A stretch of 64,000 nt of DNA from an uncultured Nitrospiraceae bacterium (GTDB taxonomy: Bacteria > Nitrospirota > Thermodesulfovibrionia > Thermodesulfovibrionales > Dissulfurispiraceae): contig CAVPIW010000009.1 in NCBI GenBank assembly GCA_963705105.1, positions 1 through 64,000 of the forward strand, read 5' to 3'. The notes under the pieces are model-generated. The model searched no databases, was not told the DNA's origin, and was given only the letters and a program-made list of their open reading frames with translations. Shown here piece after piece: positions 11,009-63,985 of the stretch (position 1 is the stretch's first letter; every line of letters starts with the position of its first letter). The position numbers and the translations under genes were made by a program.

Positions 11009-11206
11009 GTTGCAATAAGACATCCGGAAAGGCGGGGCGAAGATGCCGAAAAGCCTTGGTGCTGCGAAACCTATGCCGTCCCATAAGGATCATTTCAGGC
11101 CTATGGTTGATCGCATAAAAGATGAGATCCCGAATGTCCCATTTCAAATAATCATGCTCGCTATCAGCAAGGCTTTGAGGCACTTTGTCCCGCCTTTGCA
11201 TGCAAC
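11009..11206 (+). repeat. Palindromic element copy R1 (type A core)
   Basis: GTTGCA...GGAAAGGCGGGGCG...TCCCGCCTTTGCA-TGCAAC; homologous to R2-R9. Confidence 0.85.
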
Positions 11207-11314
11207 AGAACGGTCTTCTTTGCGCTCTTTGCGGCTTTGCGTGAGACACCTGAGATGTCTTCCTTTCACTGACACTCACACTGACACTGTCACTATTTTT
11301 TAAGGAGGCTAACC

Positions 11315-12046
11315 ATGCCGACAGCGACTTTGAAGGTGCTCCTCCTCCGCCATACGCCCAATCCCGAGGAGACGATCTCCATGGCGGCCAAGCTGTGCTA
11401 CAGCCCGTCGGACATCGAACCACTCCGGGAAAAGATCGAGAAGAAAGACCAGCGCGCCTTCGTCGAGAGGCTCATGAAGATGGGCCACATGAGCCCCATC
11501 GAGCACTCATCCTTCACCTTCGCCATTGAGGGCATATCGCGGGCCTGTTCCCACCAGCTCGTGCGGCACCGCATCGCCTCTTACAGCCAGCAGTCCCAGC
11601 GCTATGTGAGCGAGGAGGCGGGGTTCGATTACGTCATCCCGCCTTCCATCGCCGACGACGCCAGGCTGAAAGAGGCTTTCGAGCGCTTCATGGAACAGGC
11701 CCAGGAGATGTACAACAGGCTTGTGAAGGGCCTCAACGACAGAGGACTCCAGGGCGAGTCGGCGAACCAGGACGCCCGGTTCGTCCTGCCCAATGCAGCC
11801 GAGACGAAGATCATCGTCACCATGAACGCCCGGGAGCTCCTCCACTTCTTCCGGCAGCGCTGCTGCAACAGGGCCCAGTGGGAGATCCGGCGCCTCGCCG
11901 AAGAGATGCTGAAACTCGTTAGGAAAGTCTCCCCCGTCGTCTTCGCCAGGGGAGGTCCGGGCTGCCTTTCCGGTCCCTGTCCTGAAGGCGAATATTCCTG
12001 CGGAAAGGCCCCGGAGGTGAGAAGCAGGTACGGTGTGAAGAAATAG
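11315..12046 (+). CDS. thyX: FAD-dependent thymidylate synthase
   Basis: GHMSPIEH, SHQLVRHRIASYSQQSQRY, ARFVLP, AQWEIR. Confidence 0.95.
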   Translation: MPTATLKVLLLRHTPNPEETISMAAKLCYSPSDIEPLREKIEKKDQRAFVERLMKMGHMSPIEHSSFTFAIEGISRACSHQLVRHRIASYSQQSQRYVSEEAGFDYVIPPSIADDARLKEAFERFMEQAQEMYNRLVKGLNDRGLQGESANQDARFVLPNAAETKIIVTMNARELLHFFRQRCCNRAQWEIRRLAEEMLKLVRKVSPVVFARGGPGCLSGPCPEGEYSCGKAPEVRSRYGVKK

Positions 12047-12083
12047 CCTTCGCCGCCGATAGAATTACTATGGGGGGCGCCGT

Positions 12084-13634
12084 ATGGAACAGAAGGTAAT
12101 GACCAAGCGGGAGCGGGTCCTTGCTCTCATCAGCGAGCACGAGGACTTTCCCGCCCTTTCGACGACGATCACCCTCATGAACGGAATGAACTCCTCCAAC
12201 GACGTCTCGGTGAACCATTTCTCGAACCTCATCCTTAAAGACTATGCCCTGACCTGCAAAATCATCCACATGGTCAATTCGACGGCCTATGCCCATTTCG
12301 GCGAAATCACGACGGTTTCGCGGGCTGTCTTCGTCATGGGTCTCGAAACGATCAAGAACATGGCCATTGCCCTCAAGATGTTCGATCATTTCCGGGACCG
12401 CGTCAACACGGACGAACTGAAAGACCTGATGCTCAAGGCGCTCGCCAGCGCCGTCATCGCAAGGCACGTCTCGGAAAGCACGGGAGTCGGCAATGAGGAG
12501 GAGGCATTCCTCTGCTCCCTTTTCCACACCTTTGGTACGGTCCTCGTCGCCTTCTATCTCCCCGACGATTACAGCGAGATCAGAAAGCTCATCCATGAAA
12601 ACGGGGCGACGGAGGAGTCGGCGTCCCGGTCCGTTCTCGGCATATCCCTCGTCGATATCGGCATGCATTTCGCGAAGCTCTGGCATTTTCCGGAGCGCAT
12701 GGTCCTGAGCATGAAACCGGCCAGGATCCCCCTGATCAGGGGTGAAACCCCGGAGGAACAGCTTACGATGCTCTCCATACTGTCCCACGGGATCACCGCC
12801 GCCATCACCGAAAAGAAGGACCATGACGACAAGAAAAAGGCGATCGAGAAACTCGTGAAGAGTTACCGGGGGTTTTCGGAGATTGAAGGGGAGAAGATCG
12901 AGGGGTTCCTCACCTCGTCGGTCTCGGAGATAGAAGAATACTCCAATATCTTCGACCTCAACATCACCGACAGCCCGTTCATGAAACATCTTGAAGTGTA
13001 TATCCGGCAGATCGACATGACGGACGAGGGTTCCAATGGATCGCAGGATGCCGGATCGGAGGCGTTGGTGAGCCTCGACAGCCCGAGGTGCGGGCAGGAA
13101 GAGAGCTCCGATTCGGTCTTCACACGGGGCATCCAGGAAGTGACGAACGCCCTCTTCGGCAGCTATGAGCTGAACGATATTCTCAGGATCGGCCTCGAAA
13201 CGATGTTCCGGGGCCTGAATTTCGCGCAGGTCCGGAACGTCATCTTTTTCATCAAAGACGTGCGGAGCCCCCATCTCTGCATCCGTTTCGGCTTCGGGAG
13301 CGATATCGACCACATGAAAATATGGTTCCGCATACCTCTTGTGGCAGAAAATGACATCTTCAGCCTGGCGACGACGAAACAGAAGGACCTGCTCATCAAG
13401 GACACCGAGGACGCCTCGATCAGGCAGTCTCTTCCCCAGTGGTACCGGAGCCGTGCAAGGGGACGGATGTTCCTCATCCTCCTGCCCATCACGATCCAGA
13501 TGAAGCCCATCGGACTCTTTTATATCGAGGGATCCAGGGACGGGTGCAGGCACGTCACGGAGAGTCATCTCAATTTTCTGAAGATCATCAGGGACCAGAC
13601 GGTCCAGGCCATCAAGCGGAAGATCGGCGGCTGA
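12084..13634 (+). CDS. HDOD-domain signalling protein with a GAF-like C-terminal region
   Basis: FPAL, ILKDYALT...VNS, ITTVSRAVFVMG, EEAFLCSLFH, AKLWHFP. Confidence 0.8.
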   Translation: MEQKVMTKRERVLALISEHEDFPALSTTITLMNGMNSSNDVSVNHFSNLILKDYALTCKIIHMVNSTAYAHFGEITTVSRAVFVMGLETIKNMAIALKMFDHFRDRVNTDELKDLMLKALASAVIARHVSESTGVGNEEEAFLCSLFHTFGTVLVAFYLPDDYSEIRKLIHENGATEESASRSVLGISLVDIGMHFAKLWHFPERMVLSMKPARIPLIRGETPEEQLTMLSILSHGITAAITEKKDHDDKKKAIEKLVKSYRGFSEIEGEKIEGFLTSSVSEIEEYSNIFDLNITDSPFMKHLEVYIRQIDMTDEGSNGSQDAGSEALVSLDSPRCGQEESSDSVFTRGIQEVTNALFGSYELNDILRIGLETMFRGLNFAQVRNVIFFIKDVRSPHLCIRFGFGSDIDHMKIWFRIPLVAENDIFSLATTKQKDLLIKDTEDASIRQSLPQWYRSRARGRMFLILLPITIQMKPIGLFYIEGSRDGCRHVTESHLNFLKIIRDQTVQAIKRKIGG

Positions 13635-14334
13635 CCTCCATCTTCGCATCGAGGACGACGGCTCCGCCGGGATAGAGGGAGACGGGATTCAGGTCGATCT
13701 CGGACGGCACACCCGTTGCCATCAGTTCCGATACGGTCACAATCACCCTCGCCAGTGCGTCCATGTCGATGGGGGGCCACCCCCTGAACCCCGCCAGGAG
13801 CCTTGACCCTTTCACACGGCCCACGAGACGGCGGGCTTCGGCGTCCGTGAGAGGCGCGAGGGCGAAGGCAACGTCCCTGTAAAGCTCCACGAAGACACCG
13901 CCGAGCCCGAACATCACGACGGGACCGAACTGGCTGTCGACGATACCGCCGACGATGACCTCCGTCCCCGGCGGGGCCGTCTCCTCGACGATCACACCCT
14001 CGGCGCCCTCGATGGCGAGGAGCTCCGCAACGGCTTTCCGCAGCTCTTCCGCACCGGCGATCCCCCGCCGGACGCCGCCGACGTCGCTCTTGGAAACGAT
14101 GCGCGCCGACGAGACCTTCGCCACAAGAGGGTACGCGAGCGGCGGAGGGGTCAGGGTCTGTCCCTTCCCGATGAAGACACCCCTCGGGACTGTGAGCCCG
14201 AGCCGCCCCAGCAGGCCCTTCACCTCATGCTCAAGAAACACGCTCCGGTCTCCCCGTTCTGCGAGGAACGAACGGAGTTCCCTGCCTGCTTCGGTCTGAT
14301 CTGCCCGGATGTCGTCGTGATCGATCCGGGTCAT
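13612..14334 (-). CDS. Acetate--CoA ligase (ADP-forming) beta subunit, ATP-grasp
   Basis: YPLVAKV, KSDVGGV, FGPVVMFGLGGVFVE, EIDLNP. Confidence 0.85.
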   Translation of the reverse strand: MTRIDHDDIRADQTEAGRELRSFLAERGDRSVFLEHEVKGLLGRLGLTVPRGVFIGKGQTLTPPPLAYPLVAKVSSARIVSKSDVGGVRRGIAGAEELRKAVAELLAIEGAEGVIVEETAPPGTEVIVGGIVDSQFGPVVMFGLGGVFVELYRDVAFALAPLTDAEARRLVGRVKGSRLLAGFRGWPPIDMDALARVIVTVSELMATGVPSEIDLNPVSLYPGGAVVLDAKMEVSRRSSA

Positions 14335-14335
14335 G

Positions 14336-16979: not shown

Positions 16980-17071
16980 GCTGAGTCCTCAGTCTCCTGA
17001 GCACTCGTGACTGTCTGTTGTCCGTCCCGAGTCTTGTCTGTTATTTCTGTCTACTGTCTATTGTTTATTGC

Positions 17072-18328
17072 CTACTGTTTATGGCACTTCGCGCATTCCG
17101 TCACCGCCGTCGCCACCTGTCCGTTGTGGCAGGCGCCGCAGCTCTTGCCCTCGTACATGGGATCCATCTTCAGCTTCCCCACACTCTGCTTCGAAGCAAA
17201 AAGCTTCGGATGACACTCGGCACACCCGAAGGCCGCCGTGTGGAACTGGTGGCTGAACACCAACGCTCCCGCGCCCCCTCCGCCATAGGTCAGGTCTTTG
17301 CCGAATCCCGCCTTGAGGTCATGGCACTTTGCGCACTCCGACGACGCAAAGGCCATCTGCCCATTGTGACAGGTCCCGCAGATCTTGCCCTCATACATGG
17401 CTTCCATTTTCATCCTGCCGGCGCTCTTCTTCATCGCAAAGAGCTTCGGATGGCACTGGTCGCACCCGAAGGCGGCGACATGGAACTTGTGGCTGAAGGA
17501 TGCATCGGCGAACCCCTCGATGCGGTAGGTCAGCTCCCTGTTGAATTCTGTTATATCATGACATCTGGCACACTCTGACGGGGCAAAGGCCTGCTTCGCA
17601 TTGTGGCAGGTCCCGCACCATGTGCCCTTGTTTATTCCTTCCATGTTCATCATTCCGGCGGACTTCTTCAGACTGAACGTTTTCGGGTGACATTCCTGGC
17701 ATCCGAACAACGCTGTATGCATGGCATGGCTGAATTTCACCGACCCCACATTCCTGACCGAGTACTGCAGCTCCTTGCCGTAGGCCTTCATGTCGTGGCA
17801 TTTGACGCATTCGTTTACCCCGAAGGCCTGTTTCCCGTTGTGGCAGACGCCGCAGTTCTTTCCTTTCTCCATCTCAGCCATCGTTACCGCCGAGTGACCG
17901 CTCTTCATAAGGAAGGGCGCCGGATGACAGGCCCGGCAGGTCGACCTTTTGGCATGGCTGTCGTGGCTGAACTGCGACGGCTGTTTCCCCTTCTTAAAGG
18001 ATACGGATTTCAGCCCGTGGCACTTCCCGCAGATCGCCGACAGGTCGCTGACAAGCCTGTGCTTCTCCAGGTCATGACACTTGCTGCACTGCTTCGGAGA
18101 AGTCTTGCCGTGGATCTTATGAGAGTAAAGGCCTTTCCCCGTCTTTTCGTCGAACTGTTTGAAGTCATGACATGTAAAACAGGGCAGGCCGCCGACGGTC
18201 TGTTCCTGTTCGGCATCCCTTTTGTCTGACGCTGCCGGTTTTTCCTTTCCTCCTGCTCCGGAAGTGTATGCTATCGATAACACCGCCAACGCCAGCAGGG
18301 CAATAAAGATTTTCGCGACTTTTCTCAT
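17072..18328 (-). CDS. 15-heme c7-type polymeric cytochrome c
   Basis: 15 CxxCH counted, in five three-heme units (FSH..H....C..CH...M...G..CG.CHNG..AF....C..CH); signal peptide. Confidence 0.9.
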   Translation of the reverse strand: MRKVAKIFIALLALAVLSIAYTSGAGGKEKPAASDKRDAEQEQTVGGLPCFTCHDFKQFDEKTGKGLYSHKIHGKTSPKQCSKCHDLEKHRLVSDLSAICGKCHGLKSVSFKKGKQPSQFSHDSHAKRSTCRACHPAPFLMKSGHSAVTMAEMEKGKNCGVCHNGKQAFGVNECVKCHDMKAYGKELQYSVRNVGSVKFSHAMHTALFGCQECHPKTFSLKKSAGMMNMEGINKGTWCGTCHNAKQAFAPSECARCHDITEFNRELTYRIEGFADASFSHKFHVAAFGCDQCHPKLFAMKKSAGRMKMEAMYEGKICGTCHNGQMAFASSECAKCHDLKAGFGKDLTYGGGGAGALVFSHQFHTAAFGCAECHPKLFASKQSVGKLKMDPMYEGKSCGACHNGQVATAVTECAKCHKQ

Positions 18329-18493
18329 ACGACTTCCCCCCGGTCGTCCCGATCGTCAGCCCAAAAGCTATGTGCTTCCATGAAACCTCCTCATCGGGGA
18401 ATTTGGAAGGCTCGATCCGGCCCCTCTCTCTGAGTCCTCAGTCCTGAGTCCTTTCTTTTCTGAGTCCTGCGTCCTGAGCACTCGTGACTGCCT

Positions 18494-19507
18494 TTACTGT
18501 TTGTGGCACTTCGCGCAGTCCGTCACCGCCGATGCCACCTGCCCGTTGTGGCAGGCCCCGCAGCTCTTGCCCTCATACATCGGGTCCATCTTCAGCGCGC
18601 CGCTCTTCTTTGACGCAAACAGCTTCGGATGACAGTCGCCACATCCAAAGGCAGCCGTGTGGAACTGGTGGCTGAACACCACCGCTCCCGCTCCCCCTCC
18701 CTCATACTTCACGTCCTTGCCGAATCCCGCCTTCAGGTCATGACATTTGGCGCACTCCGTCGATGCAAAGGCCATCTGCCCGTTATGACAGGCCCCGCAG
18801 CTCTTGCCCCCGTACATGGGCTCCATCTTCAGCTTGCCGCTCTTCTTCATGGCAAACAGTTTCGGATGGCACTGGTCACACCCAAAGGCCGCCGTGTGAA
18901 ACGTGTGGCCGAACACCACCGCTCCCGCTCCCCCTCCGGCGTATTTCACATCCTTGCTGTATCCACTCTTGAGGTCATGGCACTTGGCGCACTCTTTCGT
19001 CCCAAAGGCCTTCCTGCCGTTGTGGCACTGCCCGCAGTTCTTCCCTTTGTCCATCTCCTCCATGGTGATGACGCTGCTGCCCGCCTTCATGGGGAAGATC
19101 TTCGGGTGGCATTCCCGGCACCTCTGCCTCTTGGCATGAGCCTCATGGTTGAAGGCAGACGGCAATGAGCTCCGCTGGAATGTCAGGCCCTGCAGTGTGT
19201 GGCATTTCCCGCAGACGCCGTGGATGTCCGCACTGAGTTTGTGGGCTTTGAGGTCATGGCACTGGTTGCAGTGATACCCCGTCTTTGCATGGATGGTGTG
19301 GGAGAAGCTCCCTTTGCCCGCTCCCGCTGTGTAGTCCTTGTATTCATGGCATTTGAAGCAGGGCAGTTCGCTGACGGCTTCGTCTTTGCTGATGATGCGC
19401 TCCACGGGCGCCGCCGCTTTCTTGTCCTTGTCCTTGTCCCCCGCTCCGGGGACGCAGCCCGTGATGACGATCATCAGTCCCGCAAGGAGCACCCGGATCG
19501 CCTTCAT
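18494..19507 (-). CDS. 12-heme c7-type lipoprotein cytochrome c (CbcC-like)
   Basis: 12 CxxCH in four units; lipobox ITGC. Confidence 0.88.
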   Translation of the reverse strand: MKAIRVLLAGLMIVITGCVPGAGDKDKDKKAAAPVERIISKDEAVSELPCFKCHEYKDYTAGAGKGSFSHTIHAKTGYHCNQCHDLKAHKLSADIHGVCGKCHTLQGLTFQRSSLPSAFNHEAHAKRQRCRECHPKIFPMKAGSSVITMEEMDKGKNCGQCHNGRKAFGTKECAKCHDLKSGYSKDVKYAGGGAGAVVFGHTFHTAAFGCDQCHPKLFAMKKSGKLKMEPMYGGKSCGACHNGQMAFASTECAKCHDLKAGFGKDVKYEGGGAGAVVFSHQFHTAAFGCGDCHPKLFASKKSGALKMDPMYEGKSCGACHNGQVASAVTDCAKCHKQ

Positions 19508-20226
19508 TCCTTGCCCCCTTCTTTCTTGCCGTATTCAATCTCGTATTCCAACGGATGCTCGTGTTTCATCTCCTGCAGGCTGATCCGCCCCGTCAGCCAC
19601 GCCATGCTCATGGGAAATTTCTCAAACCGCAGGTGTTCGTTGTAAAAGTGAAAAAAGAAAATAAACACGATGGCCAGAAGCGCTTCGTCTCCGTGCATGA
19701 TGAACAGCACTTCCCAGATCCACTCCAATGTCCACTTCGGAAACAGGTGGGAGGCCTGCACGGGAAAGGCCAGAAACAGCCCCGACAGTCCGATGATGCC
19801 CATGCCCCAGAACACGGCCCAGTAGTCAAATTTGTGGACGTAGGTGAACCGCCCGAATTGCGGCTTCTCCCTGCTCAGCCCCAAAAAGTACTTGAAGTTC
19901 TGTGCCGCGTCGGTCAGATCTTTGGGAACAGGCACAATGGTGGTGTCCGGGTGAAACCGCATGCGGCCCGTCAGGATCCGGTAGGCCATGTACAGCACAT
20001 GCCACACAAAGTCGCTCACCATGATGACGCCCGAGACGACGTGAATGGTGTGGGCGTTCTTGGGTCCCCCCCAGATGCCGATCCACCATCTCGACTGCTC
20101 CATCTCCGGGTATTTCAAGGCCCACCCGCTGAAGGCAAGCAGTAAGAAGGTCACAAACAAGATCCCGTGCTGCAGCCTCTCGATGAGGTTGAACCGCTGG
20201 TATTCCCCTTGTATCTGCTCACTCAT
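19504..20226 (-). CDS. Membrane di-heme cytochrome b (CbcB/FdnI-like)
   Basis: RFNLIERLQH, FGRFTYVHKFDYWAVFWG, HGDEALLAI; 4 TM segments. Confidence 0.85.
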   Translation of the reverse strand: MSEQIQGEYQRFNLIERLQHGILFVTFLLLAFSGWALKYPEMEQSRWWIGIWGGPKNAHTIHVVSGVIMVSDFVWHVLYMAYRILTGRMRFHPDTTIVPVPKDLTDAAQNFKYFLGLSREKPQFGRFTYVHKFDYWAVFWGMGIIGLSGLFLAFPVQASHLFPKWTLEWIWEVLFIMHGDEALLAIVFIFFFHFYNEHLRFEKFPMSMAWLTGRISLQEMKHEHPLEYEIEYGKKEGGKE

Positions 20227-21175
20227 GGCCGCCCCCTTTCCGGAATATCCAGTCCCGGATGTCCGCATAGACGTTGAGGATCACGTGGATGAAGATAAAC
20301 AAAAAGGTCCCCAGGACCAGAACGATCAGTCCTTTCTCCGTATAGTGCGCAACCGCTCCCGCCGGTTTGTGGGTGACAGACCCGACAAATTTGTCCGTCG
20401 CCCCGGGATGGCACCGCCCGCAGGTCTCTTTCCTCTTGTCCACAGACATGGGTGACTGCGGGTCCGTCCACTTCCACACGCCGTGGTAGCCGTGGCAGCT
20501 CGCGCAGGTGGGCACTTCCTTCTGCCCCAGCTTGTGCTTCTTGCCGTGGAAGCTCTCTTTGTATCTCTTCAGGATCTCCTCACTGTAGCCGTACCGCTTC
20601 AGGATCTCCGGGTCTTCGTGACACCGGCCGCAGGTCTCGACGACTTCGCTCCAGTGGACTTTCGATTCCCTCACTCCCTTGGGCTGTATGTAGTGCGCAG
20701 CGCCGTGGCAGTCCGTGCAGATGGCCCCGTCTTTGCTGCCCTTGTCAATGACGTTTTTGGCATGGACGCTCTGCAGCCACTGCGTGTAGGCCCCTTTGTG
20801 GCATTCGATGCAGGCAGCGTAGGCGACGGGTTCCAGTTTGGCCTTGCCTTTGATCTTCTTGGCCAGTGAGGCGATCTCCGCCGGCACCTCGGCCGCCCCG
20901 GCAGGTCCGTGCCCTCCCCCACTGAAGTTCCTGTGGCAGGCCGTGCAGTCCAGCTCGCCGTGCACCGCCTTGCCGTACCGGCCCGCGTCAATGTGCACGT
21001 CGATCATCACCCCCTCGGCCGTCTTCACCCTGCCCTTCATCGCATCGTGACAGACAAGACAGTCCGATGTGTCGGCAGCCATTGCGGGAGATATCAGAAA
21101 CGGCAACAAAAGCAAGAATACCAGGAATGTGTTTCCCACAACCCCTCCTTTACCGTCAATAGTAAAAAGGCGCAT
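20219..21175 (-). CDS. 7-heme cytochrome c with C-terminal membrane anchor (CbcA-like)
   Basis: 7 CxxCH counted; C-terminal TM with His. Confidence 0.85.
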   Translation of the reverse strand: MRLFTIDGKGGVVGNTFLVFLLLLPFLISPAMAADTSDCLVCHDAMKGRVKTAEGVMIDVHIDAGRYGKAVHGELDCTACHRNFSGGGHGPAGAAEVPAEIASLAKKIKGKAKLEPVAYAACIECHKGAYTQWLQSVHAKNVIDKGSKDGAICTDCHGAAHYIQPKGVRESKVHWSEVVETCGRCHEDPEILKRYGYSEEILKRYKESFHGKKHKLGQKEVPTCASCHGYHGVWKWTDPQSPMSVDKRKETCGRCHPGATDKFVGSVTHKPAGAVAHYTEKGLIVLVLGTFLFIFIHVILNVYADIRDWIFRKGGGHE

Positions 21176-25957: not shown

Positions 25958-26014
25958 CCGTTCCTCTCCCGGCGCGCCTTATCAAAAAAGCAAAGCCCGA
26001 CCCTTATAAGCCCC

Positions 26015-26188
26015 GCAAAGGCGGGACAAATGCGCCGAAAAACCTCGGTGCTGCGTAACCTTTGCCTTCACAAAAGAGACGGCTCAGCCCTATGGTCGAC
26101 GACACAAAGGGTGAAATTCTGAAAACCAATTATAAAATAATCATCCTCGCTATCAGCGAGGCTTTGAGGCGCTTTGTCCCGCCTTTGC
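26015..26188 (+). repeat. Palindromic element copy R2 (type A core)
   Basis: GCAAAGGCGGGACAAAtGCGCC...GGCGCTTTGTCCCGCCTTTGC. Confidence 0.85.
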
Positions 26189-26201
26189 ATACACGGTATG
26201 C

Positions 26202-34036: not shown

Positions 34037-34336
34037 GTTTTTTTCATTTGTGTCTGTTATGTGCCTACCAAGTCTTTCATAGTATATTGCAGAAAGCACT
34101 GTGAAAATCACAGCATCAAAGATAGTTGTTTCATCTCCCGAAGGTGCGTGATATTCCTTAACAACGTAAATAAAGATACCGACCGGGATTACGATTATAA
34201 TGTGTCGTACAGCGACGACCCAACCCAAGACTATGAATTTTTGAATAATGTCGTATCCGCTATTGCCGCCATTCTTTCTATAGACGTATAAGACGCCAAG
34301 AAGTGTCACTATCACATGTAATATTGTCTCTATTAT

Positions 34337-35648
34337 GGTTCATCCGACAAGAGCGTACTTTGACTGATGAAGAGCCATGATCTTAAGTTTGAAGAACTCG
34401 ATATCTCTGAAGCCGTATGCCTGTCTTTTCATTGTCACAATCTTGTTGTTTGTGCCCTCCAGAGGGCCAGTTGAAATGGGATGATCATACCATGCCAGAA
34501 TCCCCCAGCGATGGGCATGGAGCGTCTCCGCAAATGACTGCAGCATCCGTATTCCTGATGCCTTGGCCCGCGCAATCCAGTCATCCAGAAAGCGCTCTGC
34601 CGATCCTTTGCCCGGGTAGTTCCAAAGCGTTCGCAAGTCTTCTTTCATGTAATAGACCGTTGCCAGAGGGGCGTTCATCTGCAATGCTTCCTGAAGCCTT
34701 TGCTGTTCGTTCTTTTCTGCGTCGAGGTTTTCGGGGTTCTTCAGCAGGAGCCAGCGGGTCCCCTTCAGCACAATCCTGTCTGACTGGCTGGTGAGCTTAT
34801 GGTACAGGTCACGACGATAATCGGAGAGCTTGTCGTTGAACAACTTGACGATATGAAAACGGTCAAAGACAACGGCTGCCTCCGGCACGTTGTCAGACAC
34901 AGCAGCGATGTATGCAGGGGACATGTCGATCGCCACGGCCTGTATTGTGGCGCCCGAGCGCAACAGCCTTCTCCAAAAAGGCTTCAACGCATCAGTCCCC
35001 TTGCCGTCGCCAACATGGACCACAGCTCCACTATCAAGATCCAAGACGACCGTCACATACCTGTGCCCTTTGCCGATGGAAATCTCGTCGATGGCGAGGC
35101 GCCTCAGATGACCCAGTTTCGGTCGGGAGAACTTTCTGTGGAGGGACCGCTTCTGGATGTCTTTGATCACGTCCCAGCTGACGCCCACATGTCGCGCAAC
35201 GTCCTGGATCGTCATGCGCCGGGAAAGCTCCAATGCATACCGTTCAAAGGCCCTCGTATAGCGGACTCGGTCCTCGGCAAACTTCAGTCTCACCTGACGC
35301 ACCACAGCGCACACCAGGCACCATACCCTCTGCACGGCAATACGCATAAACGCTCTCTTGCGACCGATCGGCACCGTCTGCAGCGCTCGCATAGTGACTC
35401 CCTTACAGACGATATCCCGCCCGTTGCACTCAGGGCACCGCAGGGTCAATCGATCTTGTGTGATCGTGAAAATAATCGCCCCTTCCTGATATCTGGTCGA
35501 TTGATACCGGTATCCTCGTATACCAAATGCGTGATACAATAAGCTTGTCGACATGTTGTTGCCTCCTTCTGAGAATCCTTGGTCGGAATCTCTTAGAGTA
35601 ACAACATGTCGCATTTTTTCAATCAAGTACGCTTAAACCGGAAGAACC
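34337..35648 (-). mobile_element. ISL3-family insertion sequence, 1312 bp
   Basis: Ends GGTTCATCCG / CGGAAGAACC; 8-bp TSD TCTATTAT at 34329-34336 and 35649-35656. Confidence 0.92.
34340..35554 (-). CDS. ISL3-family transposase
   Basis: CPEC zinc finger, AIDE, IDMSPAY, FDRFHIVK, EGTNNKI, RQAYGFRD. Confidence 0.95.
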   Translation of the reverse strand: MSTSLLYHAFGIRGYRYQSTRYQEGAIIFTITQDRLTLRCPECNGRDIVCKGVTMRALQTVPIGRKRAFMRIAVQRVWCLVCAVVRQVRLKFAEDRVRYTRAFERYALELSRRMTIQDVARHVGVSWDVIKDIQKRSLHRKFSRPKLGHLRRLAIDEISIGKGHRYVTVVLDLDSGAVVHVGDGKGTDALKPFWRRLLRSGATIQAVAIDMSPAYIAAVSDNVPEAAVVFDRFHIVKLFNDKLSDYRRDLYHKLTSQSDRIVLKGTRWLLLKNPENLDAEKNEQQRLQEALQMNAPLATVYYMKEDLRTLWNYPGKGSAERFLDDWIARAKASGIRMLQSFAETLHAHRWGILAWYDHPISTGPLEGTNNKIVTMKRQAYGFRDIEFFKLKIMALHQSKYALVG

Positions 35649-36074
35649 TCTATTATGTCCCATTTATTCATTTCGGATGCGGCAGGCAGAGAGAGAGCAA
35701 TGGCTTCAAACGCACAAAAAAAAGAAGGTAAGGCAAAGCCTCACGATCGGAGACAGATCGCTTCTTCAGACGATCCTTCAGTGGTTGATATCTAATCCAA
35801 TACATAGCGGCGTTCCTCTACAATTGTCTTTATTTCAGTATTTATTATTTTTCGGCGAAGTCTTGAGGTCAAGGGAGACGGGGCATTTCCCGCCGATCAT
35901 GTAGTTTTCGTTCTATTCCTTCATTTTTGCAATAGGCTGAGTTTCACCGAGATGCTCCGGAGTATAATATTCACCCAGATCGACCCCAAGTGCTTTAGAC
36001 TGGTCAAAATGTTTAGCACCTCCTGCTTCTTACCTGTGGCCTGATAAGCTCTTGCCCTTATGCACAGTGCCTTA

Positions 36075-36151: not shown

Positions 36152-36562
36152 TCACTTGGCCCGCATGCGGTTGTTCTTGGCGTTGTGCTCCAGCTCGCAG
36201 AGCCCCAGCTCTTCCATCAGTGGCGGGACATAGACACCGAACCTTCCGCGAAGCCCCTTCTTCAGCCCATACCAGCCGCCCACTGGATTGCTAGGCGACC
36301 TTCCCCAGGCCTCCACCGTGCCTTCCTTCGCTGGCTTCTGCTCATCCGCACCGCCAAGCTCGACCCAATCCCCTGCCTTCTTGAGCATCGCGTGCAGGTC
36401 ATCCACACAACGCGCGTCGTAGTGCAGCACCGTGCTGCCGACCGTGCAGACCAGGATCTTCTTACCGTCCTTCTCGTCGACGTGCATCGTGAACTCAGCA
36501 GTCCCAGGCGGGGTCTTCAGCTTCCACGGGTTGTCCTTTGCTCGATTCAGAGCTGTCATCAT
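36152..36562 (-). CDS. Conserved hypothetical protein (DUF6855-like), cassette, copy 1
   Basis: PWKLKTPPG, TVEAWGRS..NPVGGWYGLKKGLRGRF; family name recalled, not searched. Confidence 0.7.
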   Translation of the reverse strand: MMTALNRAKDNPWKLKTPPGTAEFTMHVDEKDGKKILVCTVGSTVLHYDARCVDDLHAMLKKAGDWVELGGADEQKPAKEGTVEAWGRSPSNPVGGWYGLKKGLRGRFGVYVPPLMEELGLCELEHNAKNNRMRAK

Positions 36563-36604
36563 GGGGCTCCTTTCGTTGCGCCGAAACTGCGCGGCTGGTT
36601 CGTC

Positions 36605-36665
36605 GTGAGGCCAAAAAGCTCACCCGCCTGCGCTTGAGCAGGTCGGGTGCAGCGACGGGTTATGC
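36605..36665 (-). other. attC of the toxin-antitoxin cassette with R' core lost (copy 1; copy 2 at 38133-38193)
   Basis: Minus strand: GCATAAC-ccgtc-GCTGCAC...GTGAGC-ttttt-GGCCTCAC, where GTTAGGCCTCAC is expected. Confidence 0.65.
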
Positions 36666-36956
36666 CTTAATTTCATCAACCGGCAAGATCTGCTTTCCGT
36701 GCCTAACAGTAAGCACTGAAATCCTCTTCTCTTCAAGCCGGTAAATCAGTCGGTAGTTTCCGAATGTCATCTCTCTTATGGCTTTGTTTTCGGTTTCAGG
36801 TACGACCCTGCCGCTTTCAGGGAAGTCCTTTAGGTCTTCCACCTTCCGAAAAACCGTGTCTACCCACTTTTCTGCAGCAGTGGGATTCTCTTGGGCGATG
36901 TATGCGGCTATCTCTGAGACCCTGTCTATTGCGAGAGGAGACCAGATAATTTTCAT
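36660..36956 (-). CDS. RelE/ParE-family toxin, copy 1
   Basis: MKIIWSPLA..., FPESGR, YRLIYR, VLTVRHG. Confidence 0.9.
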   Translation of the reverse strand: MKIIWSPLAIDRVSEIAAYIAQENPTAAEKWVDTVFRKVEDLKDFPESGRVVPETENKAIREMTFGNYRLIYRLEEKRISVLTVRHGKQILPVDEIKA

Positions 36957-37234
36957 TTCCTGATCCGGTTTAATACAGTTCTTTTCGCCTGGCCATGGTC
37001 CGCTCCCTGGCCAGCCTCAATCTGACCGATGGATGTCTGTATGTCCTGGAGCAACTCTATTCTCTCCTGCATTGCCTCATATTCGCCTGCATCGAGCAGA
37101 ACGGCCACTCCTTTGCCATGTTGTGTGATGATCAAGGGACGTTTTGTGTCGTGTATTTGTTTAAGGAAGGAGGCAATACCGGTGCGAAACTCCGACATTG
37201 ATCTGATATCTTCGTTGACTCTAACTCTTTTCAT
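36953..37234 (-). CDS. Phd/YefM-family antitoxin, copy 1
   Basis: SEFR, RPLIITQHGKGVAVLL; overlaps the toxin start by 4 bp. Confidence 0.9.
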   Translation of the reverse strand: MKRVRVNEDIRSMSEFRTGIASFLKQIHDTKRPLIITQHGKGVAVLLDAGEYEAMQERIELLQDIQTSIGQIEAGQGADHGQAKRTVLNRIRK

Positions 37235-37252
37235 ATGACACCTCACATAAAT

Positions 37253-37289
37253 AATGTACATTATAACGTACTTTAAATATGTCAGTCAA
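37253..37289 (-). promoter_or_regulatory. Sigma-70 promoter and palindromic operator of the TA cassette (copy 2 at +1528)
   Basis: TTGACT-18 bp-TATAAT overlapping the palindrome AATGTACATT. Confidence 0.65.
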
Positions 37290-37426
37290 TATTCTTTTCA
37301 GGGCATACCATATATTTTAGCTGCCGACTGTCTTTTTTCAATCATAACGGACAAACGGGGGTTAGTCGAGCAAAATAACGGAAAAAACGGCGGTTTTCGG
37401 CCGTAAGAAGCTGTGTTATCCTTATC

Positions 37427-37615
37427 GTTGCACTACACTCCCGGGAAAGGCGGGGCGTATGCGCCGAAAACCTTGCTGCGGCGACACCATAACCCTCACA
37501 GAAGACAACCGTTCAAGCCAATGCAAAGAGTGGAGTCCTGAAAGATAAACCTGACGAGGCTTATCGTCGCCTTCAGCAAGGCTTTGAGGCGCTTCGCCCC
37601 GCCTTTCTGTGCAAC
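37427..37615 (+). repeat. Palindromic element copy R3 (type A' core)
   Basis: GTTGCAC...GAAAGGCGGGGCG...CGCCCCGCCTTTC-tGTGCAAC. Confidence 0.85.
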
Positions 37616-37679
37616 TATAGAGTTATATTGCCGGTAACGATGTTATGCAGCCACTGGTACAAAAATGAGAATGCGTTAT

Positions 37680-38090
37680 TCACTTGGCCCGCATGCGGTT
37701 GTTCTTGGCGTTGTGCTCCAGCTCGCAGAGCCCCAGCTCTTCCATCAGTGGCGGGACATAGACACCGAACCTTCCGCGAAGCCCCTTCTTCAGCCCATAC
37801 CAGCCGCCCACTGGATTGCTAGGCGACCTTCCCCAGGCCTCCACCGTGCCTTCCTTCGCTGGCTTCTGCTCATCCGCACCGCCAAGCTCGACCCAATCCC
37901 CTGCCTTCTTGAGCATCGCGTGCAGGTCATCCACACAACGCGCGTCGTAGTGCAGCACCGTGCTGCCGACCGTGCAGACCAGGATCTTCTTACCGTCCTT
38001 CTCGTCGACGTGCATCGTGAACTCAGCAGTCCCAGGCGGGGTCTTCAGCTTCCACGGGTTGTCTTTTGCTCGATTCAGAGCTGTCATCAC
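37680..38090 (-). CDS. Conserved hypothetical protein (DUF6855-like), copy 2
   Basis: Same protein as copy 1; first codon GTG instead of ATG. Confidence 0.7.
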   Translation of the reverse strand: MMTALNRAKDNPWKLKTPPGTAEFTMHVDEKDGKKILVCTVGSTVLHYDARCVDDLHAMLKKAGDWVELGGADEQKPAKEGTVEAWGRSPSNPVGGWYGLKKGLRGRFGVYVPPLMEELGLCELEHNAKNNRMRAK

Positions 38091-38187
38091 GGGGTTCCTT
38101 TCGTTGCGCCGAAACTGCGCGGCTGGTTCGTCGTGAGGCCAAAAAGCTCACCCGCCTGCGCTTGAGCAGGTCGGGTGCAGCGACGGG

Positions 38188-38484
38188 TTATGCCTTAATT
38201 TCATCAACCGGCAAGATCTGCTTTCCGTGCCTAACAGTAAGCACTGAAATCCTCTTCTCTTCAGGCCGGTAAATCAGTCGGTAGTTTCCGAATGTCATCT
38301 CTCTTATGGCTTTGTTTTCGGTTTCAGGTACGACCCTGCCGCTTTCAGGGAAGTCCTTTAGGTCTTCCACCTTCCGAAAAACCGTGTCTACCCACTTTTC
38401 TGCAGCAGTGGGATTCTCTTGGGCGATGTATGCGGCTATCTCTGAGACCCTGTCTATTGCGAGAGGAGACCAGATAATTTTCAT
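38188..38484 (-). CDS. RelE/ParE-family toxin, copy 2 (L/P difference)
   Basis: YRPEEK versus YRLEEK in copy 1. Confidence 0.88.
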   Translation of the reverse strand: MKIIWSPLAIDRVSEIAAYIAQENPTAAEKWVDTVFRKVEDLKDFPESGRVVPETENKAIREMTFGNYRLIYRPEEKRISVLTVRHGKQILPVDEIKA

Positions 38485-38762
38485 TTCCTGATCCGGTTTA
38501 ATACAGTTCTTTTCGCCTGGCCATGGTCCGCTCCCTGGCCAGCCTCAATCTGACCGATGGATGTCTGTATGTCCTGGAGCAACTCTATTCTCTCCTGCAT
38601 TGCCTCATATTCGCCTGCATCGAGCAGAACGGCCACTCCTTTGCCATGTTGTGTGATGATCAAGGGACGTTTTGTGTCGTGTATTTGTTTAAGGAAGGAA
38701 GCAATACCGGTGCGAAACTCCGACATTGATCTGATATCTTCGTTGACTCTAACTCTTTTCAT
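38481..38762 (-). CDS. Phd/YefM-family antitoxin, copy 2
   Basis: Same protein as copy 1. Confidence 0.88.
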   Translation of the reverse strand: MKRVRVNEDIRSMSEFRTGIASFLKQIHDTKRPLIITQHGKGVAVLLDAGEYEAMQERIELLQDIQTSIGQIEAGQGADHGQAKRTVLNRIRK

Positions 38763-38954
38763 ATGACACCTCACATAAATAATGTACATTATAACGTACT
38801 TGAAATATGTCAGTCAATATTCTTTTCAGGGCATACCATATATTTTAGCTGCCGACTGTCTTTTTTCAATCATAACGGACAAACGGGGGTTAGTCGAGCA
38901 AAATAACGGAAAAAACGGCGGTTTTCGGCCGTAAGAAGCTGTGTTATCCTTATC

Positions 38955-39143
38955 GTTGCACTACACTCCCGGGAAAGGCGGGGCGTATGCGCCGAAAACC
39001 TTGCTGCGGCGACACCATAACCCTCACAGAAGACAACCGTTCAAGCCAATGCAAAGAGTGGAGTCCTGAAAGATAAACCTGACGAGGCTTATCGTCGCCT
39101 TCAGCAAGGCTTTGAGGCGCTTCGCCCCGCCTTTCTGTGCAAC
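38955..39143 (+). repeat. Palindromic element copy R4 (duplicate of R3)
   Basis: Matches R3; lies inside the tandem duplication. Confidence 0.85.
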
Positions 39144-39204
39144 TATAGAGTTATATTGCCGGTAACGATGTTATGCAGCCACTGGTACAAAAATGAGAAT
39201 GCGT

Positions 39205-39300
39205 TATTCAAGGACTTCCAGGAGTTCCTCTCAAGAAAGCACCCTGTCCCCGAGAAGCGGTTACCCTATTATCTCCGGTGGTTGAGTCGCTTTCGTGACA
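39205..39300 (+). pseudogene. intI: N-terminal remnant of an integron integrase
   Basis: LFKDFQEFLSRKHPVPEKRLPYYLRWLSRF resembles the extended N-terminus of long-form IntI; divergent from the attC array; no catalytic domain follows. Confidence 0.55.
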
Positions 39301-40010: not shown

Positions 40011-40135
40011 GGGAACCTCCTCTTTCGCAACCGGTCCGTACGCCTGAAGACAGATCGGGCGACAGCATGCTACCAATTTTATCGTGATTATCCTGACTGT
40101 CTGAAACAACGGAAAGTTCCCGCGCATACGCCCGC

Positions 40136-40390
40136 CGGAAAGGTGGGGTAAATGCGCCGAAAAGCATCGGTGCTGCGAAACCTTTGCCGTCCCTTGCAGA
40201 GCATGGAAGCACGACTATTGATGATACAAAGGATGAAATCTTCAAAACCCAATAATAAACAATCATGCTCGCTATCAGCGAGGCTTTGAGGCGCTTTGCC
40301 CCGCTTTTCCGTGCATCCGCCAAAATTATCATCATCATCGCATTGGAAAGGCTTTGAACCATATCGGCCTTCACGGCAGAGTAACGCAAC
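40136..40390 (+). repeat. Palindromic element copy R5 (type A core followed by the right arm of module B)
   Basis: CGGAAAGGTGGGGTAAA...TTTGCCCCGCTTTTCCG, then CATCATCGCATTGGAAAGGCTTTGAACCATATC.GCCTTC, ending GCAAC. Confidence 0.8.
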
Positions 40391-40401
40391 TGTAAGGTAA
40401 T

Positions 40402-41415: not shown

Positions 41416-41474
41416 ACGGGTTTCAGGTCTCAGGACAAAGGACTCAGGACTGAGGCGGCAGTCTCAACCCTGCA

Positions 41475-41817
41475 GTTGCATGAAAAGGCGGGGCAAAGCG
41501 CCTCAAGGCCTCGCTGATCGCGACAATGATTATTGCAGGGTCTGCTCCCCGAGCAGACCGCTTCCTCGTCTTCATTCCATGCACTGTTCTGCCGGGAAGG
41601 CAAATATGGTACAAAGCCTTTCCAACGCGATGATGAGACATCTCAAGGTGTTCAGCGCCTGTTGCCTGACGGGCTTTTGTCATCAACAGACACGGCATAG
41701 GGTGGTCTGGGGACAAACAAGGTATCTCAGCGGAAAGGCTTTTCACCACATCAGCCTTCCCGTCGGGCGTTCTTATGATGGCGCCTTCGCCCCGCCTTTC
41801 GGTCGGGCGCATGCAAC
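41475..41817 (-). repeat. Palindromic element copy R6 (module B nested in the outer arms), inverted
   Basis: GTTGCA...TGCAAC ends; reverse complement aligns with R7/R8. Confidence 0.85.
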
Positions 41818-41827
41818 ATCACGCCTT

Positions 41828-59269: not shown

Positions 59270-59848
59270 GGAAAGGCGGGGCGTATGCGCCATTCAAACA
59301 GCAGACATCTGATCAAAACCGCCCTGACGGGAAGGCTGATGTGGTGAAAAGCCTTTCCGCTAAGATACCTTGTTCATCCCCAGACCACACCTTGCCGTGT
59401 CGATCGATACCACAAGCCCGTCAGGCAACAGGCGCGGAACACCCGGAGATGTCTCATCATCGCATTGGAAAGGCCTTGAACCATATCTGCCTTCCCGGAG
59501 GGGGAGCAGACATCAGCAGGGCTTTGAGACGCTTCGCTCCGCCTTTCCACCGAGACGCGAACGCCTTCCGGAAAGGCGGGGTGGATGCGCCATTCCAACA
59601 GCAGACATCTGATCAAAACCGCCCTGACGGGAAGGCTGATGTGGTGAAAAGCCTTTCCGCTAAGATACCTTGTTCATCCCCAGACCACACCTTGCCGTGT
59701 CGATGGATACCACAAGCCCGTCAGGCAACAGGCGCGGAACACCCGGAGATGTCTCATCATCGCATTGGAAAGGCCTTGAACCATATCTGCCTTCCCGGAG
59801 GGGGAGCAGACATCAGCAGGGCTTTGAGACGCTTCGCCCCGCCTTTCC
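59270..59848 (+). repeat. Palindromic element copies R7 (59270-59548) and R8 (59570-59848), tandem with a 300-bp period, module B nested
   Basis: GGAAAGGCGGGG...C(T/C)CCGCCTTTCC; about 5 substitutions between the copies. Confidence 0.9.
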
Positions 59849-59865
59849 ACCGAGGATTGAACGGG

Positions 59866-60944: not shown

Positions 60945-61288
60945 TCATCGACCTCCATTTCCACGATATCGAGCTCCCGGCCCGTCAGAATGTCGTAGGA
61001 CGTGCCCTCACAAAGCGGACACTGCAGAATATATTTTTCTTCTACGGTGAAACGGCCGCCGCAGGCCCGGCATGCGCCGGTCAGGGGGACCTCGTCGATC
61101 AGGAGCGCCGCGCCCCGGGCGATCGTCTGCTCCTTGAGGGCGTCGAAGGCAAAAAGGAGAGCCTCTGGCAACACGCCAGAGGCCCTGCCGATCCTGACTG
61201 TAATGCTCTCTATCCTCTGAAATCCCCTCTCCCTGCACTCCCGGACGGCCGTGTCGAGGAGGCTTTCAGCAATGGAGACCTCATGCAC
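60941..61288 (-). CDS. hypA: Hydrogenase nickel metallochaperone HypA
   Basis: MHE, CRAC, CPLC, GREL. Confidence 0.95.
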   Translation of the reverse strand: MHEVSIAESLLDTAVRECRERGFQRIESITVRIGRASGVLPEALLFAFDALKEQTIARGAALLIDEVPLTGACRACGGRFTVEEKYILQCPLCEGTSYDILTGRELDIVEMEVDE

Positions 61289-61290
61289 CG

Positions 61291-61593
61291 TTACTTCTGG
61301 ACTTCCTTTTCGTAAGCCTGTTTGCCGGCGTCGAGGGCCGAGGTGAGCGCCGACTTCTGCTCTTCCAGGACTTCCTTGCCCTTGTCGATCGTCTGGGACA
61401 CCTTTTCCTTCGCCTGGCTCACGTACCCCGTCGTCTTCTCGGTCACATCGTCCGCCAGTTCACGTATCTTTTTCCGTGTCTCGGGGCCCGACTGCGGCGC
61501 GAGCAGGAATGCCAGACCGGCGCCGACGAGTCCGCCCAGCAGGAACGAGAGCAACACCGAGCCTGCGTTGAAACCACCTTCTTCGTGATGCAT
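61291..61593 (-). CDS. YtxH-domain protein
   Basis: FLLGGLVGAGLAFLLAPQSGPETRKKI. Confidence 0.85.
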   Translation of the reverse strand: MHHEEGGFNAGSVLLSFLLGGLVGAGLAFLLAPQSGPETRKKIRELADDVTEKTTGYVSQAKEKVSQTIDKGKEVLEEQKSALTSALDAGKQAYEKEVQK

Positions 61594-61597
61594 GCTA

Positions 61598-62005
61598 TCA
61601 CCTCCTGTGCTTGATTTGTTTCATGAACACGTCGACGGCCGTCCCGACACCGGCTTTCAGACCCAGCACCCGGAGGGACAGGCCTTCCCTCACCTCCGTG
61701 ACGAGAAGACTGAGGGCGTTCACGTTCGTCACGATGTCCGAGAGCGCCGACGAGAGGTTTCTCGCCTCGCCGGAGACCGTCGCGACATCATCGCTGATCC
61801 TTTTGATGTTTTTAAGCGCCTGCTCCGCCTCGACGAGGGCGGGGGTCATCTTCTCTTCCGCAGCTTTCAAAAAATCCTTTGCGCCGGCGACGACCTTCCT
61901 CACTTCGAGGGCTACAAAAATAAGGAAAAAGATTGCCGCAAGCAGAACGATAATCATGACGAAAAGGCCGCCGGTCAGGATGACGAGAAAGGGCTGGCTG
62001 ATCAT
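61598..62005 (-). CDS. DUF948-like membrane protein
   Basis: N-terminal TM plus coiled coil; usual partner of YtxH. Confidence 0.65.
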   Translation of the reverse strand: MISQPFLVILTGGLFVMIIVLLAAIFFLIFVALEVRKVVAGAKDFLKAAEEKMTPALVEAEQALKNIKRISDDVATVSGEARNLSSALSDIVTNVNALSLLVTEVREGLSLRVLGLKAGVGTAVDVFMKQIKHRR

Positions 62006-62031
62006 GTCTCCTCCTTCTTGTATTAAGTATA

Positions 62032-62622
62032 TCACATCCGCTCCCCTTGCCCGCCGCGGCGGGCCGTCTCCCTGAAAACGTGGAAAATACGATGGATGAC
62101 CGTCAGATGGCTCAGGACCAGGAGAATGACGAGGACCGGGATGATCCATCCGCTCATGCATCCCGCCGCTATGAGGACCACCCGCTCAGGACGCTCCATG
62201 AGCCCGACGTGACAGGAGATGCCGAGCCCCTCTGCCCTCGCCCTGACATAGCTGATCAGCAGGGCGCCCACAAGGCAGCCGAGGGTCAGGATCAGGCCGG
62301 CCTGGTCCTGCATCCTGAAGAAGTACCAGGCAAGGGCGATGAAGATGCACGAATCGGAGTACCTGTCGAGTGTCGAATCGAGAAAGGCCCCGAACTTCGT
62401 CCGCTGCTCGTTTATCCGCGCAACGATGCCGTCGAGGATGTCGAAGAGCCCCCCGAGGAGGATGAGAAGACCGCCTGCCATGATATGAAAGGGCAGGACC
62501 ACGGAGGCGGCAAGGGTGATGACAAAGCCGATGACGGAGATGACGTTCGGACTGAGCGGTATCTTTCGTGCGATCGGGGCAAGCGGTTTATCGAGAAAAT
62601 GTCCGAGTTTCGCACTCAGCAA
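62032..62622 (-). CDS. CDP-alcohol phosphatidyltransferase (PI-phosphate synthase-like)
   Basis: DILDGIVAR...GAFLDSTLDRYSD; SYVRARAE; GLMERPER. Confidence 0.88.
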   Translation of the reverse strand: MLSAKLGHFLDKPLAPIARKIPLSPNVISVIGFVITLAASVVLPFHIMAGGLLILLGGLFDILDGIVARINEQRTKFGAFLDSTLDRYSDSCIFIALAWYFFRMQDQAGLILTLGCLVGALLISYVRARAEGLGISCHVGLMERPERVVLIAAGCMSGWIIPVLVILLVLSHLTVIHRIFHVFRETARRGGQGERM

Positions 62623-63726
62623 CTACCTCTCCCTGGAGCCGGCGATGAACTCCTCGACCCTGCTGTGGGCCTCTTCGTCTGTGCACTGCGTTTTCGGGTG
62701 TTTCATAAAGTATGCCGACGGTGACAGGAGAAGGCCCTCCGTCCCCCTGTCGCGCGCGATCCTGCAGCACCGGATGGCGTCGATGACGACACCGGCGCTG
62801 TTCGGTGAATCCTCGACGGAGAGCCTGAGCTCAAAGTGCATCGGCATGTTGCCGAAACCGGCCCCTTCGATGCGGATGAAGCAGACCTTGTTGTCATTGA
62901 GCCAGGGGACATAGTCCGACGGGCCGATATGTATGTTTTCATTCATGAGCTGGTGGGTGATCTGGGAGTGAACGGCTTCTGTCTTCGATATCTTCTTGGA
63001 TTTCAGCCTCTGGTTGTTGAGCATGTTCAGGAAATCCGTGTTTCCTCCCACATTGAGCTGGTAGGTATGGTTCACTGTGACTCCGCGGTCCATGAAGAGC
63101 TTCGCCAGGGTCCGGTGTATGATCGTCGCGCCGATCTGGGACTTCACGTCATCGCCGATGAGCTGGAGCCCCTTTTCTTCGAAGCGGCGGATCCATTCGT
63201 CGTCGGAGGCGATGAAGACGGGGATGCAGTTGATGAAGGCCACGCCCGCTTCAAGACACGCATTGGCATAAAACCGCGTCGCCTGCTCGGACCCGACGGG
63301 CAGGTAGTTCAGGAGCATCTCGGCGCCGCTGTCCCGCAGCACCTGCGCCACGTCGCAGGGTTTCTCCTTCGCCTCGATGAACCTCCTGTCTTCAGGATAA
63401 TCCGCCATGTGCGGCGAAATGCCGTCGAGCACCTCACCCATCATGACCGTCACGGGATAGTCGGGCAGGCCGGGGAAAAAGACCTTGGTGCAGTTCGGCT
63501 TCGAAAAGACCGCCTCCCGTAAAGGTCTCCCCACCTTCCTGGCGTCCACGTCGAATGCCGCGACGACCTCTATGTCTTCAGGCCTGTATCCGCCGAGATC
63601 GTAGTGCATGAGACCGGGAGGCCGGTCGTTCCGGCCCGTCTGCCGCGACCGGTAGTATTCGATGCCCTGGATCAGAGAACTGGCGCAATTCCCGATACCG
63701 GCTATCGCAATGCGTATGGCGCCCAT
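62623..63726 (-). CDS. ino1: Inositol-3-phosphate synthase
   Basis: [43 protein letters not shown]. Confidence 0.95.
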
Positions 63727-63786
63727 CGTTGCATTATCTCCTTGTCACCTTCGTTATATCCGCTCTATCACTGCATGAACCTTATC

Positions 63787-63985
63787 GATGCAATACACTC
63801 CCGGGAAGGGAGGGGTGTATGCGCCGAAAACCTTGCTGCGGCGACACCGTAACCCTCACGGAAGACAACCTTTCAAGCCAATGGTCGATCAAACAAAAAG
63901 CAGAATCCTGAAAAACAAACCTAACGAGGCTTATCGTCGCCTTCAGCAAGGCTTTGAGGCGCTTCGCCCCTCCCTTCTATGCAAC
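63787..63985 (+). repeat. Palindromic element copy R9 (type A' core)
   Basis: GATGCA...GAAGGGAGGGG...CCCCTCCCTTC-taTGCAAC; close to R3/R4 with an extra 10 bp. Confidence 0.85.

Follow-up and report, generated by a model that had tools for sequence, protein, structure and literature searches.

The palindromic repeats dispersed through the 64,000-nt stretch analyzed here (the window; positions 1 to 64,000 of contig CAVPIW010000009.1, assembly GCA_963705105.1, from an uncultured Nitrospiraceae bacterium) are copies of a 212-bp MITE (miniature inverted-repeat transposable element). The likely driver of this MITE, based on near-identical ends and a 4-bp target duplication, is a group of IS1380-type insertion sequences (ISs) carried by relatives of the bacterium. 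The element is short, dispersed, present in high copy number and without a transposase of its own. A preliminary description of the window was right in proposing that it is non-autonomous and structured, with its enzyme encoded elsewhere.

Ends, target duplication and copy number

The genome of this study (G000, an assembly of 19 contigs that is 99.4% complete) contains 684 loci of the family by BLAST and 664 by a hidden Markov model (HMM) of the full-length copies. Two HMMs together identified 676 loci that occupy 131,758 bp, or 3.1% of the genome, and the same two models gave no matches in the reversed genome, which served as a control. In an alignment of 241 copies, conservation extends outward past the GTTGCA...TGCAAC motifs that had been taken as the boundaries of the window copies R1, R3, R4 and R6. 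These motifs do lie near the ends, but the true ends, CCTTATCGTTGCA...TGCAACnnnAAGG, are situated 7 nt outside them. The element starts on the left with CCTTATCGTTGCA, finishes on the right with TGCAACnnnARGG, has terminal inverted repeats and is most often 211-213 bp long (mode 212).

Identical 4-bp flanks were found for 148 of the 287 end pairs, compared with a shuffle mean of 16 (maximum 30), and for 136 of 268 copies once double counts were removed. This overturns the earlier statement that there is no consistent target-site duplication; in the window itself, R3 and R4 are flanked by TTAT and R9 by TGAA. When TNNA was present on both sides, the 4-bp flanks were identical in 124/153 cases, vs. 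18.7 after shuffling. There was no excess of flank identity at 2, 3, 6, 7, or 8 bp, and identity at 5 bp was seen in only 6/287 pairs. The duplication has a fixed length of 4 bp and a variable sequence, TNNA. Gap-free empty homologs, in which the joined flanks are matched elsewhere in the genome, were found for 18 of the 136 duplicated copies, including a site with a single TTAT (C12:263283-263350) that corresponds to R3/R4. Two further copies are identical across all 212 bp and sit in different flanks with their own duplications, TACA and TTTA. By crude gene calls, five of 419 copies overlap a gene.

Terminal repeats combined with a variable short duplication are the footprint of a DDE transposase. 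We recognize that footprint here because of the ends, the variable 4-bp duplication, the empty sites and the identical copies in unrelated flanks, and the element is a MITE. An identity as an integron attC site or tyrosine-recombinase core was rejected: attC sites have constant RYYYAAC...GTTRRRY core sites, and the AAC/GTT look-alike in these copies is the variable 4-bp duplication plus the terminal C/G.

Candidate transposases

Transposase loci were screened in 61 genomes of the family and one IS1380 gene was found, in G238, with the element end TTATGCAACGTAAGG followed by TAAA. The relatives of this gene across the class belong to ISs of 1520-1541 bp, whose left and right ends are exemplified by CCTTGTAGTTGCAT and CCCTATCGTTGCAT, respectively. 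Four of the six complete ISs have a perfect 4-bp duplication (TTTA, TTAT, AAAA, and TTAA). A 4-bp duplication is also present in the IS1380 elements L276 and L302. The MITE ends, CCTTATCGTTGCA and CCTTGCAGTTGCAT, match the IS end CCCTATCGTTGCA (L335) at 12/13 bases and the ends CCTTGTAGTTGCAT, CCTTCCAGTTGCAT, and CTTTGCAGTTGCAT (L336-L338) at 13/14 bases each. All four of the IS proteins tested, at 227-234 bits, passed the NCBIfam cut-off for IS1380 (180 bits). In G039, a genome from another order, an IS with an open frame (L339) occurs together with at least 40 full MITEs of 214 bp that have the same ends and core, and a perfect duplication was present in 6 of the 12 of these that were inspected. 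Counts of the end motif in 390 genomes of the class were mostly at background or in single figures; it occurs 296 times in G000, and the next counts are 256, 194, 164, 55, 55, and 53.

These sequence comparisons make it very probable that the enzyme at work is an IS1380-family transposase, encoded by an IS that is transient or was not assembled, which recognizes the terminal repeats and integrates the 212-bp MITE. In the mechanism that we propose, the transposase would bind both MITE ends, synapse them and insert the element through a 4-nt staggered cut at T-W-W-A sites, mostly intergenic, with repeated bursts giving rise to subfamilies. The fold-back core of about 190 nt that lies between the ends is not derived from the IS, and template switching between its arms during replication would keep these matched, at least partly.

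Several observations weigh against this proposal. The identical copies imply recent movement, yet the G000 assembly shows no such transposase (no matches to PF13701; best tblastn E value 0.068). Among five other genomes with a burst of the end motif, only G257 has fragments of the IS subgroup (52-65% identity). The IS1380 relatives seen in G093 and G078 are all distant, and none were found in G034 and G126. The MITE interior has no homology to the parent ISs, and the element is not an internal-deletion derivative of them. In addition, about half of the end-paired copies have no perfect duplication. Empty sites occur at the paralogous positions given above; no clean orthologous empty site was found in seven DNA read sets of related strains, in which contigs break at the repeats.

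Two kinds of variant deserve mention beside the full-length MITEs. G034 has a burst of MITEs (L406-L412) with the same IS1380-type ends and with fold-back arms, but an unrelated interior. Minimal hairpin derivatives of 29-92 bp, which are hardly more than two ends, occur in G008 (L253, L254, and L256) and in G039 (L373, L380, and L392).

Other DDE transposases resident in G000 (IS1634, IS1182, IS4, and ISH3 types) are very unlikely to be the driver. ISs of these types are present, some in near-identical copies, and one of the IS1182 type contains GTTGC within its end and is flanked by a TCAA duplication. However, the MITE ends occur on none of the 15 DDE_Tnp_1 loci, nor did the ends of the two IS1182-type ISs match, and the IS1380 ends of relatives agree with those of the MITE at all but one base.

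Mobilization of a REPIN/REP-like sequence by a RAYT or another HUH enzyme was an idea of the preliminary description. The element does form a hairpin and shows a weak replication-strand bias, and the genome has four Y1 genes, one of the two tested being above the cut-off for REP-associated tyrosine transposases. No copy, however, adjoins any of these genes: the nearest lie ~0.8-1.4 kb away, and none is within 3 kb of the fourth gene. The Y1/RAYT-like genes (L001-L004) have other inverted repeats, three being bounded by GGGGTCAG...TGACCCC and the fourth, which has a partial upstream duplicate, by GGGACAGCGCCC. The ends of the MITE match IS1380, and a variable 4-bp duplication with a symmetric TNNA target fits the staggered cuts of DDE enzymes, not HUH strand transfer. 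We consider the RAYT route largely refuted and extremely unlikely.

Pattern and protein scans of viral contigs found nothing, and all 80 loci listed by a loose-pattern scan of a genome collection are chance matches, none of which is matched by the family HMM. A metagenome scan gave 35 loci, of which at most about a dozen are real cores and the others lie within genes; no parent IS was found in that scan.

The fold-back core and the covariation of its arms

The core inside the ends is ~190 nt long. It is built from a stem of ~33-40 pairs, a GCGAT/ATCGC helix further in, and a loop of ~85 nt that varies; the arms, and not the loop, are the conserved part of the element. Eight subfamily consensuses from G000 and relatives, 192-196 nt long, keep the stem despite their different sequences, and their consensus RNA folds range from -67 to -84 kcal/mol. 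A tandem G.A motif appeared invariant in all eight, but G039 has ordinary pairs in its place, and the motif was discarded as a universal feature.

The core is found well beyond this genome. Within the family, its right-arm pattern was found in 12 of 53 further genomes, and outside the family in 3 of 247. A covariance model, a check that the preliminary description had suggested, found it in 12 of 151 genomes of the phylum, two of them in other classes. The same core is present in the public record BLAB01000001.1, which we take to be from Nitrospirota. G000 itself encodes LpxC (L275, C11:31177-31980), a finding that speaks against placing it in Chloroflexota. The parent ISs have no match to it. 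Several end types frame the core, and two of these further types match other IS1380 ends: the end in G068 resembles that of the IS1380 element L291 (0 mismatches to the pattern), whose protein is above the IS1380 cut-off, and the end in G033 is within two mismatches of L297, a partial IS1380-like element below that cut-off. Two more end types surround the core in G492 and G026. Cores with CCATAATCCGTAA ends have a 6-bp duplication in 6/13 cases and a 5-bp duplication in 1/13. These comparisons suggest that ends have been swapped onto the core; we go no further than this because the core tree admits a single clade for the type I ends (p-AU 0.154).

The covariation of the arms is real. In an alignment of 30 sequences from several genera, 87.3% of paired cells were complementary, vs. 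76.8% after shuffling and 37-46% in slid registers, and both sides had changed in 19 of 33 pairs, vs. 14.6 after shuffling, with 6 of 500 shuffles equally high; as the register was picked from the same alignment and the sequences are related, these figures are not probabilities. In 297 copies chosen by their loops there were 24 rare compensatory double changes, whereas mutations striking each site independently at 1.2% would give ~1.1. A set chosen by anchors had 77 vs. 30, and 30 of its 42 classes were present in single copies. The altered outer stem of R9 is one such case, with two compensatory changes that are each found in only two to three copies.

The preliminary description had read the covariation as selection on structure, and this is only partly shown. 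One-step copying from arm to arm by replication template switching is a known source of compensatory changes (PMC8794818), and covariation alone is no proof of selection because such copying can produce much of it. From the double changes, it is likely that template switching keeps the arms complementary, at least in part. The stem and the loop of inserted copies decay similarly in four of five subfamilies, the stem being slower in one (p 0.006), and any constraint on the stem would therefore have acted mainly on founders. There remain signs of real strand-specific folding: changes of the stem to top-strand G.T (76/7449, 1.0%) are commoner than changes to A.C (47/7644, 0.6%; p 0.006), an excess that was not found in the loop. 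The top strand is also more often on the G-poor strand (215:133, and 62:28 in a second count), but this bias fades at stricter thresholds (17:11 and 4:5). For IS1380 ISs, a bias of this kind was absent in PMC3971601. By folding energy no strand specificity was seen, as the two strands fold about equally well.

Given these signs, the fold-back core might itself be needed for mobility, with the folded strand bringing the ends together and helping the IS1380 transposase to handle a 212-bp element, for example at a replication fork. Such a role would supplement the MITE interpretation rather than replace it, and we regard it as rather unlikely. In its favor, elements of different genera, orders and classes share the core and the length of 210-216 bp even where loop identity has dropped to ~0.4-0.6, and the G034 MITEs again have long fold-back arms around their unrelated interior. 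The similar decay of stem and loop is compatible with a constraint on founders, and the strand bias and the G.T excess point the same way. On the other hand, the parent ISs move in the absence of arms like these, G008 and G039 have copies of just 39-92 bp, the strand bias weakens as described, both strands fold about equally, and template switching can match the arms without selection. A more general form of this idea, which we find quite doubtful, is that the phylum-wide fold-back cassette is a portable mobility module for IS1380 transposases, its strand folded so that the ends meet. On this view the core, found in none of the autonomous ISs checked, would have received ends from three or more IS1380 subgroups, with transposases only ~23% identical, and would hold the element at 210-216 bp. 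If true, miniature elements would have a way of DDE transposition that is assisted by structure.

Alternatively, the core could be kept as an RNA structure that is co-transcribed, its stem being processed by an RNase III-type enzyme or rendering the insert harmless to the mRNA. This has precedent in Correia/NEMIS and ERIC elements (PMC3184786). Also consistent with it are the position of 259 of 383 scored copies between co-oriented genes, the rarity of overlap with called genes, the long and stable stem and the G.T over A.C asymmetry. Against it, the orientation of copies relative to the transcription of flanking genes is unbiased (120 vs. 139), the stems of inserted copies decay near-neutrally and R1 has no convincing promoter or terminator. 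A search of Rfam with the window and six copies returned only a tRNA and no family match at E<=5, in keeping with the earlier remark that the element was not recognized as a described family. Three RNA read sets had 6-7% of the words, with all contigs counted. We consider an RNA role improbable, and an IS1380-driven MITE remains our preferred interpretation.

Copies in the window and comparison with known repeats

Scanning the window with a covariance model yielded nine copies of the core and no more (E values 3e-32 to 2e-21), five of which had been used to train it. These are the nine elements of the preliminary description, whose quoted pairing arms with compensated changes and whose distance of 115 nt from GCCGAAAA to GCTATCAGC in R1, R2, and R5 proved exact (Table 1). 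The nine loci represent only seven insertions because two pairs belong to tandem duplications, R3/R4 to one of 1528 bp and R7/R8 to one of 300 bp. Folded as single-stranded DNA, R3 and R6 have z scores of -6.8 and -5.7 relative to shuffles. R1 differs by no more than 1.5% from the copy at C12:265732-265943. R6, R7, and R8 are composites in which a second core ("B"), homologous to the first, is nested inside the outer arms; in R6, the right terminal repeat is intact at 41468 and the left one is eroded.

Table 1. Coordinates of the MITE copies and associated features in the window.
Feature	Position	Strand	Remarks
R1, full-length 212-bp MITE, subfamily A3	11002..11213	+	Between hisB and thyX; flanks TCTA/TCTT (3/4 match)
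R2, fold-back core	26005..26197	+	Terminal repeats eroded
R3 target duplication, left copy	37416..37419	+	TTAT
R3, MITE of the A1/A2 group, 203 bp	37420..37622	+	Short internal deletion
R3 target duplication, right copy	37623..37626	+	TTAT
R4	38948..39150	+	R3 copied within the tandem duplication of 1528 bp at 36152-39210; does not count as its own insertion
R5, whole element	40126..40397	+	
R5, parts	40127-40319; 40332-40380; ending 40397	+	Core; B-core right arm; right terminal repeat
R6, composite	41468..41824	-	Outer arms, nested B core 41581-41776; between ccsB and tsaD
R7, composite	59270..59548	+	B core 59314-59509 inside outer arms; without terminal repeats
R8, composite	59570..59848	+	Tandem duplicate of R7 (300 bp, 96% identity) with its B core at 59614-59809
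R9, MITE	63780..63989	+	Right terminal repeat with 3-nt deletion; TGAA duplication on both sides

Genome-wide there are 96 full B cores. Outer arms flank 52 of them on both sides and 81 on one side or more, and both terminal repeats are present in 30; B replaces the A interior in many mosaic forms. Short tandem-repeat modules occur in the window at 10960-11000, 11215-11300, and 6166-6197. Their types number 62 (AGTCATT), 241 (ACTGACACT), and 25 (GCGCTCTTTGCGG) matches in the genome, and such modules, combined in many ways, also occupy the spacers that separate B cores from the outer arms. At C10:240577-243138, an IS that is presumably IS1634-like, judging by its ends and size, is inserted within a composite MITE copy.

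Other repeated sequences were seen in the window. The tandem duplication that contains R3/R4 (99.6% identity) also carries a phd-family antitoxin gene (36953-37261) and two small ORFs. Genes at 17070-21070 have 237-nt internal repeats with many CxxCH-type codons and appear by eye to be multiheme cytochrome-like, and the segment 18498-21069 has 99% identity to C6:128082-130657. A 1.3-kb element with a frame of ~430 aa (34331-35654) has copies on C6 and C12 that are 98-100% identical.

The element belongs to the class of bacterial MITEs and would work like Nezha or Chunjie. Correia/NEMIS, ERIC, RUP, Nezha, Chunjie, and QMITE2 are likewise short and non-coding, with terminal inverted repeats and a target duplication, and are described as intergenic, present in up to hundreds of copies and stably folded; Nezha has ends in common with an intact IS, and ERIC reaches 711 copies in Photorhabdus (PMC3184786 and PMC10969869, the latter for ERIC numbers). 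Our element differs in its IS1380-type ends and duplication, and in an interior that was not derived from the parent by deletion and shows conservation across a phylum. No IS1380-driven MITE is named in the available text of these two sources, and the term IS1380 does not occur in that of PMC10969869. Among mobile repeats, bcr1 of the Bacillus cereus group comes closest in this respect; it is ~155 bp long with flanking direct repeats and has compensatory base-pair changes in its fold-back. As described in the available text of PMC3184786, bcr1 has a 5-bp repeat and a cruciform of two stem-loops and no transposase is named for it, whereas the element described here has a single long stem, duplicates 4 bp of variable sequence and is matched to an IS family.

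IS1380-family ISs such as IS1380, IS1247, and ISEcp1 are known from ISfinder for their CC...GG ends, which are seen in L276 and L336-L340, and like the MITE they have a short duplication, of 4-5 bp (5 bp for IS1247 in the table of PMC3281130). The MITE differs from them in having no transposase, in its size (212 bp vs. 1.5 kb) and in its long subterminal fold-back arms, which the ISs do not have. REP/REPIN sequences with their RAYTs are also dispersed, extragenic, high-copy palindromes, but here no RAYT is flanked and terminal repeats with a variable target duplication are present.

A search of the literature, with ISfinder outside its scope, turned up neither this element nor any MITE that is driven by IS1380 and has a conserved core. 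The end motif had no full-text matches, and the supplement of a large MITE survey (PMC11602168), outside the scope of that search, may list relatives. What is new is the likely IS1380 driver, an IS-free fold-back core that recurs across the phylum with several end types, and the signs of arm-to-arm copying. The core is deeply conserved and present in no parent, and the covariation of its arms is a warning that covariation in repeats is no proof of a functional RNA. With ~300 aligned copies and compensatory pairs that arise in one step, the family is a natural experiment on the folding of bacterial MITEs. An orphan repeat that fills 3% of a genome thereby becomes a named and testable pair of element and enzyme, the transposase of L339 or L335 and a 212-bp substrate.

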